DNA of 7,261 nt from a virus (Duplodnaviria > Heunggongvirae > Uroviricota > Caudoviricetes): the IMG/VR virus record IMGVR_UViG_2778261276_000010, positions 1-7,261 of that record; one strand, written 5' to 3'. A program made the position numbers and the translations under genes. The notes under the pieces are model-generated. The model was not told where the DNA came from. It did not search any database and worked only from the letters and a program-made list of their open reading frames with translations. The first letter of the stretch is position 1; every line of letters begins with the position of its first letter. Below, one piece after another: positions 1 to 7,261 of this stretch.

Positions 1-186
1 ATGGCAGAAAGGTTCGTGAAAACGATGAAGGAAGACTACATCGCGTTCATGCCGAAACCGAATATAAGAACGGCATTGCATAATCTTGCAGTGGCGATCG
101 AACATTACAATGAAAACCATCCGCACAGTACGTTGGGTTATCGCTCTCCGCGAGAATATCGACGTCAGCGGGTAACGTTAACTTAA
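1..186 (+). CDS. IS3-family transposase (OrfB/integrase core), C-terminal fragment; 5' part lies outside the window
   Basis: The translation [21 protein letters not shown]...[22 protein letters not shown] resembles the C-terminus of IS2 InsD-type transposases (..[33 protein letters not shown]..) recalled from memory. The ATG at 1 is probably an internal Met. Confidence 0.7.
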
Positions 187-223
187 GATACACCCCCTGT
201 CTGGAAATAAGGGGGCAAGAACA
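1..223 (+). mobile_element. Right end of an IS3-family (IS2-like) insertion sequence, truncated by the window start; includes the transposase 3' end and a terminal inverted repeat
   Basis: Positions ~188-223 read TACACCCCCTGTCTGGAAATAAGGGGGCAAGAACA, which resembles the IS2 terminal inverted repeat as I remember it (..TGTCTGGAAATATAGGGGCAAATCCA). The exact end point is uncertain by a few bp. Confidence 0.55.
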
Positions 224-227
224 ATGA

Positions 228-971
228 TTAGATTCCCTGGTGAGTAAGAATTTTACTTTCTGAACTCCTCTGAGAGTATTGACTTGGAGAAACACCAAAA
301 TAACGTCTAAATACATAAGTAAAGTATGAGACACTGGCATAACCACAGACCTTAGCTACTTTACTAATAGGATAACAACGAGTGCTGAGTAAATATTCAG
401 CCATTTGCATCCTCTCATCAAGTAGGATCTTACTGAATGATACCCCCTCTTCTTTCAATTTCCTCTTTAGTAAACTTTCGCTGAGATATAATCTTGATGA
501 TATATCCTTAAGATGCCATGGTGCAGATAAATCCGTATGAATAATCGTTTTAACTTTAGCCCCTGTGCTTTTCAAACATCCAAACAGAAATACTCCAAAT
601 TGTTTTTCAGAAGAAAATGCAGAGAGACATGTAAAAGCAATAGACTCATCAAAAATTTCTATATATTCAGCACAGTGATTAGCCCAACTAATTAATCCTT
701 TAATTAAACTGAAGTCAGCAAAGTTTATTTTTAAATAAGATGGATATTCCCTACAATCAGAAATATCCCTTAAGTTATTAGCTTTCAAATAGCGACTAAT
801 AAACTCAGCGCCAAAATCCGCCACTATCACTCTTTCAGGATATGTCAGGAAAAAATCTCTATAGCTAGAGTCGACAAGTACAGATAAACCTCTATCCAGA
901 AACACACTCTCTTTTCCGAAATAAACATCAAAGGACTCCAAAATCAATATAACTGAACATGTAGTTGCCAT
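228..971 (-). CDS. AraC/XylS-family transcriptional regulator, AppY/YdeO/GadX-like
   Basis: The C-terminal HTH region (WHLKDISSRLYLSESLLKRKLKEEGVSFSKILLDERMQMAEYLL..CGYASVSYFTYVFRRYFGVSPSQY) closely resembles E. coli YdeO and AppY as I recall them, and the N-terminus MATTCSVILILESFD matches their MxxVCSV motif. I prefer the ATG at 971 (GGTGGA Shine-Dalgarno-like sequence ~5 nt upstream) over the ORF-track start at 980. Sampled 60-nt stretches are about one-third G+C. Confidence 0.8.
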   Translation of the reverse strand: MATTCSVILILESFDVYFGKESVFLDRGLSVLVDSSYRDFFLTYPERVIVADFGAEFISRYLKANNLRDISDCREYPSYLKINFADFSLIKGLISWANHCAEYIEIFDESIAFTCLSAFSSEKQFGVFLFGCLKSTGAKVKTIIHTDLSAPWHLKDISSRLYLSESLLKRKLKEEGVSFSKILLDERMQMAEYLLSTRCYPISKVAKVCGYASVSYFTYVFRRYFGVSPSQYSQRSSESKILTHQGI

Positions 972-1554
972 ATCATCCACCCAATTTAACTGAAACCAGG
1001 ATGAAGTATATGCATATAAAGTTCACTTTGCCAAACTTCAGTATAAAAAACCACATAAAAAATAGGGTGTGATAAAAAATACCGTAAAAATAAAGTAAAG
1101 GATTATAAATTCCGTTACAGTTACAAATGATACTAAAGAAACAATTCCTTAGAAAACCTTATTTACAGCCAATAAGTAAGACACTTATATGATATCAAGT
1201 TTTCATAAAACATAACTAGGCTAAATAGCTGCGCCTAATACCGCTACACTTTTGCCAGCCCATGTTTGCCTCCGGGTATTGACCCCTTCTCTACGCAACT
1301 TCAGTTCCCACCACCAACTTTGCGGCAGCTTTGTAGGATCAATGTCTAAAAGAATAATGGTGACCGATAAGAAAACGACTGAATAACTGCAGATTTTCGC
1401 TCGAAACCTTCCTGTCAGATCCATAGCGAATCAAGTGCTGAATGTCACAGTATCGAACAGAAAACAGTGACGATCTAACCCTTCAAGAATATTCTACGAT
1501 TGTTCTGTTTAGGAAAAGCAAGGCGGGAAGTCGGGAGATAAGTCATTGATAAAG

Positions 1555-1620
1555 TGGCGGAGAGAGGGGGATTTGCCCCCCCGGTAGAGTTGCCCCTACT
1601 CCGGTTTTCGAGACCGGTCC
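1555..1620 (-). other. 3' partial copy of tRNA-Ser (anticodon CGA): anticodon stem-loop, long variable arm, T-arm and acceptor 3' strand with CCA; probable att-site remnant of an integrated element
   Basis: The reverse complement reads GGACCGGTCTCGAAAACCGGAGTAGGGGCAACTCTACCGGGGGGGCAAATCCCCCTCTCTCCGCCA. It has a CCGGU/ACCGG anticodon stem with loop CUCGAAA, a long variable arm, a 5-bp GGGGG/CCCCC T-stem and a TCTCTCC-G-CCA 3' end. The 5' acceptor strand and D-arm are absent: upstream sequence is unrelated. The T-loop reads GGCAAAT rather than the conserved TTCRAAT. Confidence 0.65.
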
Positions 1621-1699
1621 AATCATCAAACGAAACATAAAATTAATTCACATTATGAGGAAAAGTATCTTTTTTGTACTTGTAAATTCAAAGGCTTAG

Positions 1700-2569
<870 letters not shown>

Positions 2570-2588
2570 GTCTTTAAGTGATAAGCAT

Positions 2589-2630
2589 AAACCGCAGCAC
2601 GATCTTCTTGCATACGACGTGCTACGGTTT
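2589..2630. terminator. Hairpin between the convergent GIY-YIG-like gene and pin; possible bidirectional terminator
   Basis: AAACCGCAGCACG (2589-2601), a 16-nt loop, then CGTGCTACGGTTT (2618-2630). This gives a 13-bp stem with one G-U wobble, followed by a U-rich run when read on the plus strand. The long loop makes it atypical. Confidence 0.35.
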
Positions 2631-3184
2631 CATTTATCTCCGACCGGAAACTTCTTATACAGTGTCGATATACCAACATCATAGATGATCGCCACCTTTT
2701 GGCGAGGAACGCCTGATGCAATTAATCGCCCGGCCTGCGCCCATTGTTCTGGTGTAAGTTTGGGACGACGTCCACCAATTCGTCCCTGTGCGCGAGCTGC
2801 TTCCAGTCCAGCTTTTGTTCGTTCAACAATCAGTTCACGCTCCATTTCAGCCAGGGCACCCATCACATGAAAGAAAAAGCGCCCCATTGGGGTACTGGTA
2901 TCAATTGAATCCGTCAGACTACGAAAGTTGATGCCTCGTTCGCGCAACTCCTCCACCAGCACGACAAGATGCCGCATACTGCGCCCCAGTCGGTCCAGTT
3001 TCCAGACCACCAGCGTGTCACCTGCCGATAATGTCCTGAGCAGCTTTTTCAGTCCTGGTCTGTCGGACTTTGTACCGCTTATCTTGTCTTCAAAAATCAG
3101 CTCACATCCTGCACAGTTCAGCGCATTACGTTGTAGATCGGTATTCTGGTCATTTGTTGATACACGTATATAGCCAATAAGCAT
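2630..3184 (-). CDS. pin: Serine-recombinase DNA invertase of the Pin/Gin/Hin/Cin family
   Basis: The translation from MLIGYIRVSTNDQNTDLQRNAL... is near-identical in layout to e14 PinE and Mu Gin as I recall them, with the catalytic Ser in the RVS motif, GRxxKL and a C-terminal HTH (IYDVGISTLYKK). Start chosen at the internal Met (ATG 3184..3182) with GGGGGA 8 nt upstream; the ORF-track start at 3220 adds 12 unlikely residues. Confidence 0.9.
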   Translation of the reverse strand: MLIGYIRVSTNDQNTDLQRNALNCAGCELIFEDKISGTKSDRPGLKKLLRTLSAGDTLVVWKLDRLGRSMRHLVVLVEELRERGINFRSLTDSIDTSTPMGRFFFHVMGALAEMERELIVERTKAGLEAARAQGRIGGRRPKLTPEQWAQAGRLIASGVPRQKVAIIYDVGISTLYKKFPVGDK

Positions 3185-3238
3185 GTTAAATCCCCCTGGT
3201 AAAAGCAGGAATGATGCCATTTGCTTGTTATTTCTTCA

Positions 3239-3264
3239 TTTTCATAAACGTTGGTTTGGGAGAA
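3239..3264. repeat. Invertase crossover site A (hix/gix-like 26-bp site, core TT at 3251-3252) containing a 14-bp inverted repeat (3251-3264)
   Basis: TTGGTTTGGGAGAA at 3251-3264 is the exact reverse complement of 5081-5094. The flanking half-site TTTTCATAAACG shows 8/12 dyad symmetry with the other half. Confidence 0.6.
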
Positions 3265-3600
3265 TTATCTCTGGCTGGCACTGCATCGGGTGTCATTGGT
3301 CTGAATGGGTATGTAACGATTCCGTTAATTATTTCAGGTTCCCGGAGAACACTGATTATTCAGTGGGGGCAGGCGAGATTTGGTGGGTCTGGTGGTGAAG
3401 ATGCCGGATATCTTAATGATTTTCCTTTTGCCTTTCCGTCAGCATGTTATGGAATGATAGTTAGTCATGTGGGGCATACACCTTCAGGCGCAGGAATCCT
3501 GTCGGCTTCTGCAATTACATCAAATCAGTTCCGCGGTTTTTCAAGCATAGCGACTGCTGCAAACGCTGTATTAGGTCGTTATATCGCTATAGGGGTGTAA
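3253..3600 (+). CDS. Alternative tail-fibre C-terminal cassette (Sv'-like), currently silent; lacks its own start and would fuse in frame to the constant N-terminal region after inversion
   Basis: The frame is open from the inverted repeat (GGT TTG GGA GAA, codon-aligned identically to the same sequence in the tail-fibre gene) to TAA at 3598-3600. The ORF-track N-terminal extension MMPFACYFFIFINV (3211-3252) is probably not translated. Confidence 0.6.
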   Translation, partial: GLGELSLAGTASGVIGLNGYVTIPLIISGSRRTLIIQWGQARFGGSGGEDAGYLNDFPFAFPSACYGMIVSHVGHTPSGAGILSASAITSNQFRGFSSIATAANAVLGRYIAIGV

Positions 3601-3601
3601 T

Positions 3602-4039
3602 ATGTTTTATAGTCCATCTTTAAACATTTTTGTGAATCCTGCACTTAAGGATGATTACATTAATGCAAATTCATGGCCAGATGATGCTCTGGCTGTCAGT
3701 GATGATGTTTATAATGAATTTGCAATAAATACGCCCCCAGATGGCAAAATTCGTGTTGCAGGAGAGAATGGATTACCCACATGGGCACTAATACCTTCAC
3801 CATCACATGAAGAACTTATTCAACAGGCAGAATCAGAAAGGCAATTATTGCTTAATCAGGCCAACGAATACATGAACAGTAAACAATGGCCCGGTAAAGC
3901 CGCTATTGATCGTCTGAAAGACGAGGAACTGGCGCAATATAATTTGTGGCTGGATTACCTGGACGCACTGGAGCTGGTTGATACCTCCAGTGTGCCAGAT
4001 ATTGAATGGCCTACGCCTCCGGCAGTTCAGGCCAGATGA
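3602..4039 (+). CDS. Tail-fibre assembly protein (Tfa/Mu U-like), partner of the silent cassette
   Basis: Begins 1 nt after the cassette stop. The C-terminus LDYLDALELVDTSSVPDIEWPTPP matches the conserved Tfa C-terminal motif, also seen in the other tfa copy. Confidence 0.8.
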   Translation: MFYSPSLNIFVNPALKDDYINANSWPDDALAVSDDVYNEFAINTPPDGKIRVAGENGLPTWALIPSPSHEELIQQAESERQLLLNQANEYMNSKQWPGKAAIDRLKDEELAQYNLWLDYLDALELVDTSSVPDIEWPTPPAVQAR

Positions 4040-4613
4040 CATCCGGCGCTGTGCTGGTATCTGTTGCCGTCACCGCGTCAATGTAATCCAGCACAGTGTT
4101 AAGTCGGGTGGTCTCTGCCTGCATCAGCTTCCGCCCGGCCTGCAATTTAAGTTGAATCAGACTAATGGAAGCCATTGCAGTATTAATCAGTGACTGACGC
4201 TGTACTTCTGCCGCGTCTACTGCGGCGCTATGCTGTGCCTCAGTATCGGTCACCCATTTCTTACCATCCCATTTATCGAATGGCGTTAACGGGGCGATAG
4301 TGGTTGTATTTTCAGGATAATCACCCGGAGCTGTGATTTCTTTGGCGTCTCCCGTTTCGGTGTTATAGACGATTTCACCGCGATGGTCTGGCACATATTC
4401 CCATGAGTTTAAATCCATCGAACGGCAGATAGCATAACCCGCCTTATGTATACCAGGTTCATCCAGACAGGAATATGCAGGGATACCGACACCAATGGCA
4501 AGATATTCATTTGAAGTAGAAATATATTCCCGAGTTTTACCATCATAGTTATAGACGGTAATATTCCCCGCCTTCGTGGCAATAAGCTCGCTATTTAATA
4601 CGGCGTTATCCAT
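4011..4613 (-). CDS. Tail-fibre assembly protein (Tfa), partner of the currently expressed tail-fibre variant
   Basis: 200 aa with C-terminus VLDYIDAVTATDTSTAPDVIWPELP, the same Tfa motif. The start overlaps the tail-fibre stop as TAATG, with GAGGG ~8 nt upstream. Its 3' end overlaps the other tfa convergently by 29 bp. Confidence 0.8.
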   Translation of the reverse strand: MDNAVLNSELIATKAGNITVYNYDGKTREYISTSNEYLAIGVGIPAYSCLDEPGIHKAGYAICRSMDLNSWEYVPDHRGEIVYNTETGDAKEITAPGDYPENTTTIAPLTPFDKWDGKKWVTDTEAQHSAAVDAAEVQRQSLINTAMASISLIQLKLQAGRKLMQAETTRLNTVLDYIDAVTATDTSTAPDVIWPELPEA

Positions 4614-5383
4614 TATGCAGCCCTCACGATATAGTTAAATGCAATATTTCGTGGACGGGTTTCACTCCCGCCAGTATTACCGATACTCCCTCGTGAATGA
4701 AGTGTCGGTGATGGGATCAGACTCCCTCCTGTATTTGTGGCATCAAGTCCCCGTCCTTGTGTGTATGTCTTTTTGAAAATCGTAGCCAGTTCCCATTCAT
4801 CTTTTGTGTCGTAACCATCATTGGCAACAACAATATGGCGGTGTTTTTCCAGCATCCCTGTCTGAATGCTCAATAAAACACGTCCTGCATCAATACCGCG
4901 CCCGTCATCCCAGCCACGAATAAACTCACCACGTAAATCAGGCAATTTATTTGTCGGATAAGCCTTTGCCAGTTCCGGGTATTCTTCAGCAGAAAAAGCC
5001 GCACCGTTGCATTTCAGCCAGCCTGTTGGCGGTGTGGCTGAAGGCCATGGAACAGGCACACCAACAGGTAATGCAGAGCCTTCTCCCAAACCAAGGTTTT
5101 CGAGAGCCGTTTGCACAGTGCCATCCGATTTGATATCGCCAAACGGATTCTTGCGGCTTAACAGCAGCGCGCGAAGTGCGGTAAGTAACTGGTCGTGCCG
5201 CCCCTTCTCCAGGCTGGCACCGGATGCCTCCACCACGCTGCAAAGTTCCTCCTGCAACATGTCAAAGTAGTCATCATCCAGATCGGTGGCAGGTGTGCCG
5301 GTCTGGGGGTTACCACGGGTAAAACCGTTCTTACCCGCGCCGAACTTATCCTTCTGCGCGGTTTTCGTGTCTATACGATGCAT
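4613..5383 (-). CDS. Short tail-fibre protein: constant N-terminal region (codons 1-101, outside the invertible segment) fused to a variable C-terminal region with a phage tail-collar-like motif
   Basis: 256 aa. The C-terminal part (..[47 protein letters not shown]..) resembles the phage tail-collar domain. GGAG lies 7 nt upstream of the ATG. The 14-bp inverted repeat falls at codons 98-101 (..LGLGE). Confidence 0.8.
5081..5106. repeat. Invertase crossover site B (hix/gix-like 26-bp site, core AA at 5093-5094) containing the 14-bp inverted repeat (5081-5094)
   Basis: TTCTCCCAAACC-AA-GGTTTTCGAGAG has half-sites with 9/12 dyad symmetry and resembles hixL (TTCTTGAAAACCAAGGTTTTTGATAA) and gix sites from memory. 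Confidence 0.65.
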
Positions 5384-5386
5384 GGA

Positions 5387-5536
5387 TTACTCCGGATATC
5401 CTCGCTGCTGCCGTGATTGACCAGGCTTGTAGGACTTCCAGCCTTCACCTTTGTGATTTTCACAGTAGCCAGATGGGTCTGTTGTGGTGTTGCGACAGCC
5501 GCGAACACGGCAAGCCTTTGGTGTGCGCGGTGGCAT
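5387..5536 (-). pseudogene. 49-codon ORF resembling the N-terminus of a phage HNH endonuclease; probable remnant at a deletion junction
   Basis: My own translation is MPPRTPKACRVRGCRNTTTDPSGYCENHKGEGWKSYKPGQSRQQRGYPE. The C-x4-C...YC..H pattern followed by QRGY is typical of the start of phage HNH endonucleases (~110 aa) that sit next to terminase genes. Here the ORF stops 3 nt before the tail-fibre ATG. Not in the supplied ORF track. Confidence 0.4.
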
Positions 5537-5599
5537 ATTCACTCCCTAAAAAACGTATAGCATTATCGCAGACACTTAATGAATGCCTGCTGAATGCCA

Positions 5600-5803
5600 C
5601 TAATCGTCGAGTTGCAATACACCGTGCTCAAGTGACTCTGAGTAAGCGATCAGCCCTGTGTATTCAGGGATAATCTCGCCATCATCCGCTTCGAATTCCG
5701 GGATTGTACCAGTGGTGATGGTGTATTGGGGCTGACCATCTTCTTTCGCGAATGCTGCTAGGTCTTCAATCTGCTTAGCTGTAAGAACTACTGTCATGCT
5801 CAT
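5600..5803 (-). CDS. Small acidic hypothetical protein (65-67 aa)
   Basis: ORF with GAGG 8 nt upstream of the second ATG (5797), so the true start may be 5797. No recognisable motif. Confidence 0.5.
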   Translation of the reverse strand: MSMTVVLTAKQIEDLAAFAKEDGQPQYTITTGTIPEFEADDGEIIPEYTGLIAYSESLEHGVLQLDD

Positions 5804-5815
5804 ACCTCAGTTGTT

Positions 5816-5838
5816 AAAAAGCCCCGCTATTGCGAGGC
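5816..5838 (-). terminator. Rho-independent terminator downstream of the lysis cassette
   Basis: The minus-strand transcript reads GCCUCGC-AAUA-GCGGGGC-UUUUU: a 7-bp GC-rich stem with one G-U pair, a 4-nt loop and a U5 tail, 24 nt after the stop of the membrane-protein gene. Confidence 0.45.
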
Positions 5839-5861
5839 TATGATTGACTAAAGTGATGCTG

Positions 5862-6137
5862 TCAGGTGTGGGTCCAAATGAATTTAACAATCCCAATAAT
5901 GCTAGCCAGAACGCCAAAACCAAAAATAAATTGACCACATACCCCTATGATTCCCGATGCAATGGCACCGGCATTTGTCTGAGCATTTTCGTTTATGCTC
6001 GCCCCCACTAGATACATAATCAAACCAACTATGAGAGATGCGATAATCCAATGTTCCACTGCTAATACAATTACAATGCTCAAAATATCTGCTAAACCAT
6101 CACTATGACCACTCACTGCATATCCTTGCTTTGACAT
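5862..6137 (-). CDS. Small integral membrane protein (91 aa, 2-3 predicted hydrophobic helices), function unknown
   Basis: Hydrophobic stretches ILSIVIVLAVEHWIIASLIVGLIMYLVG and GAIASGIIGVCGQFIFGFGVLASIIGIV. Lies immediately downstream of the spanin genes. Confidence 0.55.
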   Translation of the reverse strand: MSKQGYAVSGHSDGLADILSIVIVLAVEHWIIASLIVGLIMYLVGASINENAQTNAGAIASGIIGVCGQFIFGFGVLASIIGIVKFIWTHT

Positions 6138-6203
6138 TTGAAAAATTCATCACTGGATTATAATTGTTTACACCCTTCATAGTCGTTCGAATATGATAAA
6201 AAA

Positions 6204-6740
6204 TCAATTGTGGGGGATAGCGTTATTTGACTCTCTCAACGAGTCGTAAATACGTTCACACGTCATCCCGGCGGTGTAGCGTTCGTCAGCGATTCCAGCA
6301 TAACGTTTAGCTTCTGCTGCAATATCTCCGAGCATGTCGGCGAACATTCCGGCGTCGGCGTCGGTTGTTTTGCTTCGGACGGCAGCGGCAAGATCAGCGG
6401 TGTGCTTTGCGGCGTCCAGGCGTGCGGCAAGCTTTGTTGCTTCGGTACGCAACTGGCTAACAGTGGCAGACAGGCCAGCAGCAGTGGCAGCAGATTTAGC
6501 GGCTTGTGCTTGTGCATCTTTTACAGCCTCATCACGGGCAATTATGCGCCCTTGTTCAATCCAGCGTGCGGCAGTCTGCGCGTTCGCTTCCTGTGAAGAT
6601 TCCATGCTATTGTGGTCAGCCCACTTCTTTTGCCAGCCCCGCTCACTCCAGATGTTCCCGACAAGAAATGCACCAGCCAACATCAGCAAAACAATGATTG
6701 TTTTCCACCGCGCCTGAACAAAAGCAAAGACCGCTGTCAT
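6204..6740 (-). CDS. Rz-like i-spanin (inner-membrane spanin subunit)
   Basis: Has an N-terminal transmembrane helix ([20 protein letters not shown]) followed by an Ala/Gln/Lys-rich, coiled-coil-like periplasmic domain. The start overlaps the endolysin stop as ATGA. It contains an embedded lipoprotein ORF. Confidence 0.8.
6263..6517 (-). CDS. Rz1-like o-spanin (outer-membrane lipoprotein), embedded in the +1 frame of Rz
   Basis: Signal peptide [22 protein letters not shown] with lipobox L-A-S-C, then a proline-rich mature region ([21 protein letters not shown]). GAGG lies 9 nt upstream of the ATG. Entirely inside the Rz ORF in a different frame. Confidence 0.7.
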
Positions 6741-7261
6741 ACCAGCAACGCCGCCCGCGCTTTGTTATAACGACTATTTCTGTCAGCCAGTCCATTCTGG
6801 CCACCGTTGATGATCTGCGTTACACGGACAACATCACCTGAATACATCAGACAACCACGTAATGTGAAATACCATGCAGCAGAACGGGCTGCATGTTTCT
6901 CCTGTGTCAGCAACTCTGGTGTGCTGATCAGATCCAACTTCAGCGCCGCACCGCATTTGGCGTAGTTCTCGCGGCCGGTGATTTGAAGCAGGCCACGACC
7001 GCGATATTTCCAGCCGTCACCCTGGCTGTTATTCCCCATGCGGTCACCATAAACCAGATTGGCTATTTGCGGCTGGTGGGCTACCTGCTTACCATCGACA
7101 CGCCCCAGCATTTCACACTGATAAGGCGTCAGGCGTTTACTAAAGGTTTTCTTCAGCCCGTCTACCGAGTAGTTGAAGCTTTCCACCAGCGAGGTAAAAC
7201 CAGCAGATTCATGCCCAACTTGTGCAATGAACATGGCCTGATCGTTAACTGCTGTGATTCC
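6737..7261 (-). CDS. Phage endolysin, glycoside hydrolase family 19 (chitinase-like lysozyme); 5' end lies beyond the window
   Basis: Motifs [15 protein letters not shown] (two Glu about 9 residues apart) and [15 protein letters not shown] match the GH19 signature. The frame stays open upstream of the Met at 7234 to the window edge (..[19 protein letters not shown]), so the real start is probably off-window. Confidence 0.85.

Follow-up and report, generated by a model that had tools for sequence, protein, structure and literature searches.

A tRNA fragment lying beside phage genes is usually taken as a prophage boundary, a habit that calls for caution in annotation. The question raised by the present locus is whether such a fragment, at positions 1555–1620 (minus strand) of a 7,261-nt viral DNA (hereafter the window, meaning the whole stretch analysed in this study), marks the end of the prophage that carries it. 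The fragment represents the 3′ 66 nt of the tRNA-Ser(CGA) gene serU and reads, from window position 1620 to 1555, GGACCGGTCTCGAAAACCGGAGTAGGGGCAACTCTACCGGGGGGGCAAATCCCCCTCTCTCCGCCA. When it was aligned with the annotated serU gene of K-12, 64 of the 66 positions were identical, which is far above chance, and the identity ran from near tRNA position 24, in the 3′ D-stem/anticodon stem, as far as the CCA end. The anticodon is CGA, within the loop CTCGAAA. The fragment lacks the 5′ acceptor strand and most of the D arm; when the RNA was folded, the anticodon, variable, and T arms were kept and the acceptor stem was missing, and the fragment does not form the complete cloverleaf of a functional tRNA-Ser gene. 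ARAGORN detected no tRNA gene in the window, and Rfam gave no tRNA match there even at E ≤ 1. A sub-threshold Rfam match to Plastid-psbl-rps4 at 1558–1609 on the plus strand (31.8 bits, against a gathering threshold of 68) is the antisense of the tRNA piece.

The sole mismatches between the fragment and serU change TT to GG at T-loop positions 54–55, and the T-loop therefore reads GGCAAAT in place of TTCAAAT and departs from the conserved T54-Psi55-C56. We compared these two positions among sister copies of the fragment. TT was found in K-12, MB15, ev099-type phages, and the O157-type strains 9000 and 2017C-4109; the intermediate GT was found in strain 41; and GG was found in the window, G4/9, and 7784. 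This TT–GT–GG series is consistent with relaxed selection, and, as judged by sequence comparison, GG is a derived decay mutation in the T loop. The remainder of the fragment outside this change is intact. The edge of unbroken identity with serU varies by lineage, being 66 nt in the window and 62 nt in the sister copies, and the phage arm is still tRNA-like for a few nucleotides past that edge. The original prediction, made from the DNA letters, had described a nonfunctional 66-nt minus-strand 3′ piece of tRNA-Ser with a decayed GGCAAAT T-loop, and both descriptions agree with the serU alignment, the negative ARAGORN and Rfam searches, and the series in the sister copies.

The sequences on both sides of the fragment indicate how it arose. 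On the CCA side, positions 1277–1554 (minus strand) are a 278-bp chromosomal spacer from between serU and yodB. The homology to the serU locus starts from TATTGA, and the spacer is 97–98% identical to the serU loci of K-12, MB15, and strain 41 and 99.1% identical to the native serU flank of CFSAN061771. On the other side, positions 1621–1728 are the phage P arm of a serU-type attP of the ST64B family. Beyond the tRNA block, local alignment of this arm with the ST64B attP arm gave a score of 32, while 1000 shuffles gave 12.1 ± 2.0 (z = 10), and at the genuine serU locus of MB15 the joint is flanked by this same arm. Insertion of ST64B in serU has been reported (PMC10100743). The gene order of ST64B is int (sb28)–tRNA-Ser copy (attP)–pin (sb27)–tail fibre. 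Hence the locus combines a block of 3′ tRNA identity, the native downstream flank of that tRNA gene, and a P arm belonging to a phage that has a cognate integrase. From this arrangement, window 1277–1728 is read as P arm, core (O), and B′ arm, i.e., an attR-type joint formed at serU, in which the tRNA piece is the core of a fossil attR.

We searched for a living counterpart of this joint with a chimeric query consisting of the yodB-proximal spacer of K-12, the serU 3′ piece, and window 1621–2040. Of 5,426 complete E. coli genomes, five covered 95–100% of the query, and all five carry the joint at the native serU locus together with an intact serU and an ST64B-type integrase. In MB15, the order from the left is zinT, yodB, the spacer, the joint (GGTCC|AATCATC...), a GIY-YIG gene, pinE, and tail fibre genes, followed by the baseplate, tail, head, terminase, lysis, and early genes and xis, and at the right end by the integrase, three cargo genes, the intact serU, and mtfA. 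With ST64B Int, the MB15 integrase shares 83% identity, and its family includes the integrase encoded beside serU in a lambdoid serU prophage (58% identity). The element had been placed on the 5′ side of the fragment, with GIY-YIG, pin, and tail fibre genes within it, and a comparison with the serU locus of relatives had been proposed; the MB15 layout is the one foreseen, and it settles the origin of the fragment, whose maker is the phage still attached to its 5′ side. Displaced 3′ fragments of at least four kinds (ca. 66, 62, 44, and 15 nt) occur at the native serU locus across E. coli strains, the 15-nt kind being found in CFT073, the carrier of PAI-CFT073-serU. These differing lengths suggest that several integrase types with different crossover positions use serU.

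Beyond the spacer, the window does not continue into yodB. The homology to the serU locus stops 278 bp past the CCA end, at 1276/1277, against the terminal ca. 55 nt of an IS630-family element (1222–1276), which has a 93% match to the end of an annotated transposase gene and also matches PPompW phages. The outer end of this remnant lies at a CTAG target (1216–1219), and internally it is cut where the serU spacer starts. The 1276/1277 joint itself showed no diagnostic signature, microhomology, or intact IS that accounts for the fusion of the IS630 interior to the spacer. Further left are a gene for an AraC-family transcriptional regulator (228–980, minus strand; Pfam HTH_AraC and HTH_18), which is annotated in RefSeq for G4/9, 7784, and O157 strains, and the C-terminal remnant of an IS2 (IS3-family) transposase orfB (1–186, plus strand), which runs off the left edge and carries the annotation of an incomplete integrase core domain or of InsD from IS2. 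PatE (Z0321), described on CP-933H/OI-8, reportedly activates acid-resistance genes (PMC10877973, PMC11879457). The AraC gene sits where patE is described in O157:H7, and judging from this position it is probably a PatE-type prophage regulator.

The AraC gene is cargo that travels with the fossil joint, and the joint with this cargo in place of yodB was found in 413–434 genomes. Whether the cargo could be native DNA downstream of an intact serU was examined with a second chimeric query (cargo, spacer, whole serU, and the mtfA side), for which a coverage of at least 80% was required. None of the 5,426 genomes had the cargo adjoining an intact serU at this coverage, and this candidate explanation was rejected. 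In G4/9, the query of whole serU and the mtfA side had only one place, and the native serU locus of this strain may be absent or rearranged.

The present setting of the joint is a different tRNA locus. No complete E. coli genome covered at least 80% of the window, and its chromosomal position was taken from relatives matching window 1–5399. This part is 99.9% identical to E. coli G4/9, where the copy adjoins yagP′/paoABCD and not serU. There, the block is found 1.8 kb into a prophage that is bounded by 3′ repeats of thrW (thrW 3′ piece: TGGTGCCGATAATAGGAGTCGAACCTACGACCTTCGCATTACGAAT). One 45-nt repeat is located 263 bp left of window position 1 (L001 19694–19738), and a second is located at L001 44279–44323, 16 bp after int1; the intact thrW stands further right, after a second P22-like remnant and next to proA. 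int1, the P22-type integrase of the prophage, shares 57% identity with int2, which abuts thrW, and has no relationship to the serU-type Int. The thrW fragment left of the cargo was also found in 7784, 2017C-4109, 9000, and O112ab:H8. The context of the thrW array was inspected in a handful of the ca. 430 genomes, and every close relative inspected had the same setting. In the closest genomes, therefore, the fragment is not the current attachment site and the real boundary is the thrW fragment ca. 260 bp left of the window edge; the same would hold for the source genome of the window, as far as its sequence allows it to be placed.

At the thrW locus, G4/9 has a tandem array of units with direct thrW 3′ repeats between them (see also L008 13905–13949); after the window-type prophage comes a P22/Sf6-like remnant that carries gtrA/gtrB, a tailspike gene, and a second integrase gene. 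Left of the window in relatives is a P4-like satellite (L003 16565–17954, L010 3313–4738, L023 1–954, and L024 85–1474) carrying genes for an integrase, a primase-helicase, and psu/sid/delta-like proteins, with an ABC-three-component defence system in 7784. Its integrase gene abuts a displaced thrW 3′ fragment, which appears to have been reused as an attachment site.

The left part of the window also occurs outside chromosomes. Window 1–1616, comprising the IS2 remnant, the AraC gene, the IS630 remnant, the spacer, and the tRNA piece, recurs with 98% identity in three free phages, ev099, PhiR70_1, and mEp332; its position in them is between the side tail fibre genes and int. In ev099, the int product is lambda Int (787 bits, end to end; PDB 5J0N/1Z1G) and is only 22% identical to the serU-type Int. 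The packaged genomes of these three phages thus contain host DNA contiguous with a hybrid att, as expected of a transduction hybrid. The presence of one block both in free phages with lambda Int and in thrW-bounded relatives indicates that the fragment is passenger DNA moving between phage backbones. The same flank and cargo are, moreover, joined to two unrelated P arms, ST64B-like in the window and lambdoid, SerU-LTIIb-like in ev099 and O112ab. A kinship between the ev099/SerU-LTIIb arm and the window arm, suggested by eye, was not significant (z = 1.0) and was dismissed.

On the phage side of the joint, the first gene (1796–2569, plus strand) encodes a LEM-3-like GIY-YIG nuclease (Pfam PF22945), and its product, WP_000355484.1, is common to G4/9, 7784, and MB15. 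In the E. coli phages, a GIY-YIG gene separates pin from the att arm, an interval of only ca. 200 nt in ST64B; the gene may be a moron or a homing-type insertion at the very end of the phage late region. It is followed by a gene for a pin-type serine DNA invertase (2630–3184, minus strand; Pfam Resolvase and HTH_7), which is annotated as pinE and is syntenic with sb27 beside attP of ST64B. The hairpin between the GIY-YIG gene and pin gave a sub-threshold Rfam match to CssrB (Shigella sRNA B) at 2593–2652 on the minus strand (24.5 bits, against a gathering threshold of 76). Next to pin is an invertible tail-fibre region (3211–5383; Pfam Gp53-like_C, Caudo_TAP twice, and Collar), in which 19-nt inverted repeats (3246–3264 and 5081–5099; 95% complementary) bracket a segment of ca. 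1.85 kb containing two tail-fibre assembly genes and alternative fibre C-termini. This segment has the opposite orientation in 7784 and strain 9000, and it looks like a host-range switch of the Mu gin or e14 pin type.

Further right, the window has another joint. The N-terminal 140 nt of an HNH endonuclease gene (5397–5536, minus strand) is fused to the start of a tail-fibre gene (5383); the homology of the left part ends at 5399 and that of the right part begins at 5397, which sets a deletion joint at ca. 5397–5399. An e14/P27-like prophage in strain 2018-05-5CC matches the right part (5397–7261) with 100% identity. About 20 kb, from terminase to baseplate, is missing at this joint and is intact in 7784, 2018-05-5CC, and MB15. 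Neither the GTDB representative genomes nor the JGI metagenomes nor IMG/VR contained a match to a query spanning the joint (5380–5419).

Several other explanations of the fragment were weighed against these data. That it is a chance tRNA-like sequence, or a functional if unusual tRNA, has a negligible probability: nothing except the resemblance itself speaks for it, the 64/66 identity together with 278 bp of contiguous serU-locus homology speaks against chance, and the absent acceptor and D arms and the negative searches speak against function. Another explanation takes the fragment for a functional attP core, with a 3′ copy of serU carried by the phage to make the gene whole again on integration. 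An ST64B-type attP does hold such a copy, and the block is present in free phage genomes, but the neighbours of the fragment do not fit. Its 3′ arm is E. coli chromosomal spacer and not a phage P′ arm beside a cognate int, so that the two arms are not both phage-specific; the lambda Int gene of ev099 lies ca. 2.4 kb off, behind IS debris; and the integrase of the window-type prophage is of the thrW/P22 type. Because the ev099 int encodes lambda Int, we rejected the fragment as the attP of ev099-type phages, and as an attP in general it is most improbable.

According to the original prediction, the fragment is the present attR of a serU prophage, with the chromosome directly to its left and an intact serU and an integrase gene to its right. 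Its orientation logic is correct, and such a layout does exist in the five genomes with an identical joint, MB15 among them. However, past the 278-bp spacer come the IS630 remnant, the AraC gene, and the IS2 remnant instead of yodB, and the nearest genomes have a thrW-bounded prophage without a serU partner. In G4/9, the nearest complete genome, a search of 45 kb for the expected direct-repeat partner found a single serU core and no second core or tRNA-Ser, an outcome that the prediction itself had named as refuting it, and the integrase present is P22-type and not cognate to serU. Nor does the fragment lie at its target tRNA locus with non-phage DNA beyond it, the neighbours being yagP/pao and window 1–1276 being phage-borne. 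The prediction was thus right in seeing a true attR-type joint produced by integration at serU and wrong in making it the boundary of the present prophage, which the thrW repeats provide; as a description of the present boundary it is very unlikely, and beyond the right window edge neither an intact serU nor a serU integrase is to be expected.

Our preferred reading, to which we give a probability of about 0.85 as a whole, is that the fragment is a relocated fossil attR of serU inside a thrW-bounded prophage and not a present boundary. An ST64B/P27-like temperate phage integrated into E. coli serU by means of a serU-specific tyrosine integrase and displaced the 3′ ca. 62–66 nt of the gene. The displaced piece stayed joined to the P arm, GIY-YIG gene, and pin on one side and to the serU–yodB spacer on the other. 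The integration at serU and the displaced-piece joint are established. Later, the joint was separated from the serU locus, keeping no more than 278 bp of host spacer, and it now lies between the phage late end and the cargo, inside a degraded CP-933H-type prophage in the thrW array by yagP/paoABCD. This setting was observed in the closest genomes and is presumed, from sequence similarity, for the source genome. For the relocation we infer two plausible routes: an aberrant, lambda-bio-like excision that took attR with adjacent DNA, or an IS-associated illegitimate joining of the IS630 interior to spacer position −278. Either route would have been followed by module exchange among related prophages.

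A related possibility is that the relocated fossil attR is still a recombination substrate, either as a portable secondary attB for serU-type integrases or as a 344-bp patch of homology. It would explain why one captured flank with its cargo carries two unrelated P arms: the left boundary (IS630/spacer) is identical and the arms cease to agree within 4 nt of the edge of the core, both arm types come from phages with one Int family (58–83% identity), and the anticodon stem-loop core is intact. Reuse of the nearby thrW fragment by the P4-like satellite points in the same direction. Against it, no uncollapsed intermediate with two serU cores in one thrW array was seen among the few arrays inspected, and the arms could also have been exchanged by homologous recombination with a true attR at the serU locus. 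We consider a continuing role as a substrate possible, yet on balance unlikely. In a specific form of this idea, the fossil would be a portable landing pad through which serU integrases insert phages into the thrW prophage or lambda-type phages, and tandem collapse then swaps the late modules. Integration of a serU-type phage into the fossil and subsequent tandem collapse may give the two arms, and late-gene modules would then be exchanged between unrelated phage types; we hold this form to be tentative and somewhat less likely still.

As a relocated fossil attR, the locus is a case of ordinary prophage mosaicism and a new instance of a pseudo-tRNA att remnant. Reading the fragment as the boundary would place the prophage end wrongly by ca. 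2 kb and name the wrong target gene and the wrong integrase. The locus also offers a clear natural example in which an att joint and host DNA were captured and handed from one phage backbone to another, along with an AraC regulator gene. Its 344-bp serU-derived patch is a second copy of serU-locus sequence, ca. 1.7 Mb from the original, and is a potential substrate for rearrangement or secondary integration.

Among known systems, the prophages SerU-LTIIb (KU052038), MB15, and STEC1589 resemble the window in having a displaced 3′ piece of serU followed by the downstream spacer. In SerU-LTIIb this piece is annotated as a 62-nt pseudo tRNA-Ser adjoining yodB, and MB15 shares with the window an identical P arm and identical GIY-YIG, pin, and tail-fibre genes. 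These three prophages are at the serU locus, with yodB past the spacer and an intact serU and a serU-type int at the far end, whereas in the window the spacer breaks off after 278 bp and the joint is internal to a thrW-bounded prophage. The attP of ST64B has a homologous core and P arm and the same gene order on the P side, and ST64B Int belongs to the same integrase family as those of the E. coli serU prophages. On its 3′ side, however, ST64B has P′ and int, making it a true attP, and the window has E. coli chromosomal spacer, as in an attR; unlike ST64B, the window has the GIY-YIG gene inserted between the arm and pin.

K-12 has pseudo-tRNA att remnants of its own, ptwF at CP4-6, pauD at DLP12, and pawZ at CPZ-55. 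Like the window fragment, they are displaced 3′ tRNA pieces left by integration, but each stands at the boundary of its own element, whereas the window fragment is away from its parent locus and inside another element; the true boundary in relatives, ca. 260 bp left of the window, is a ptwF-like thrW fragment. Lambda bio and gal specialised transducing phages carry a hybrid att and adjacent host DNA, and the window block is like them in placing a hybrid P-O-B′ with contiguous host DNA inside phage genomes. It differs from them in that its att is a fossil belonging to another integrase system than that of the carrier phage, only 278 bp of host DNA is left, and the cargo is flanked by IS remnants.
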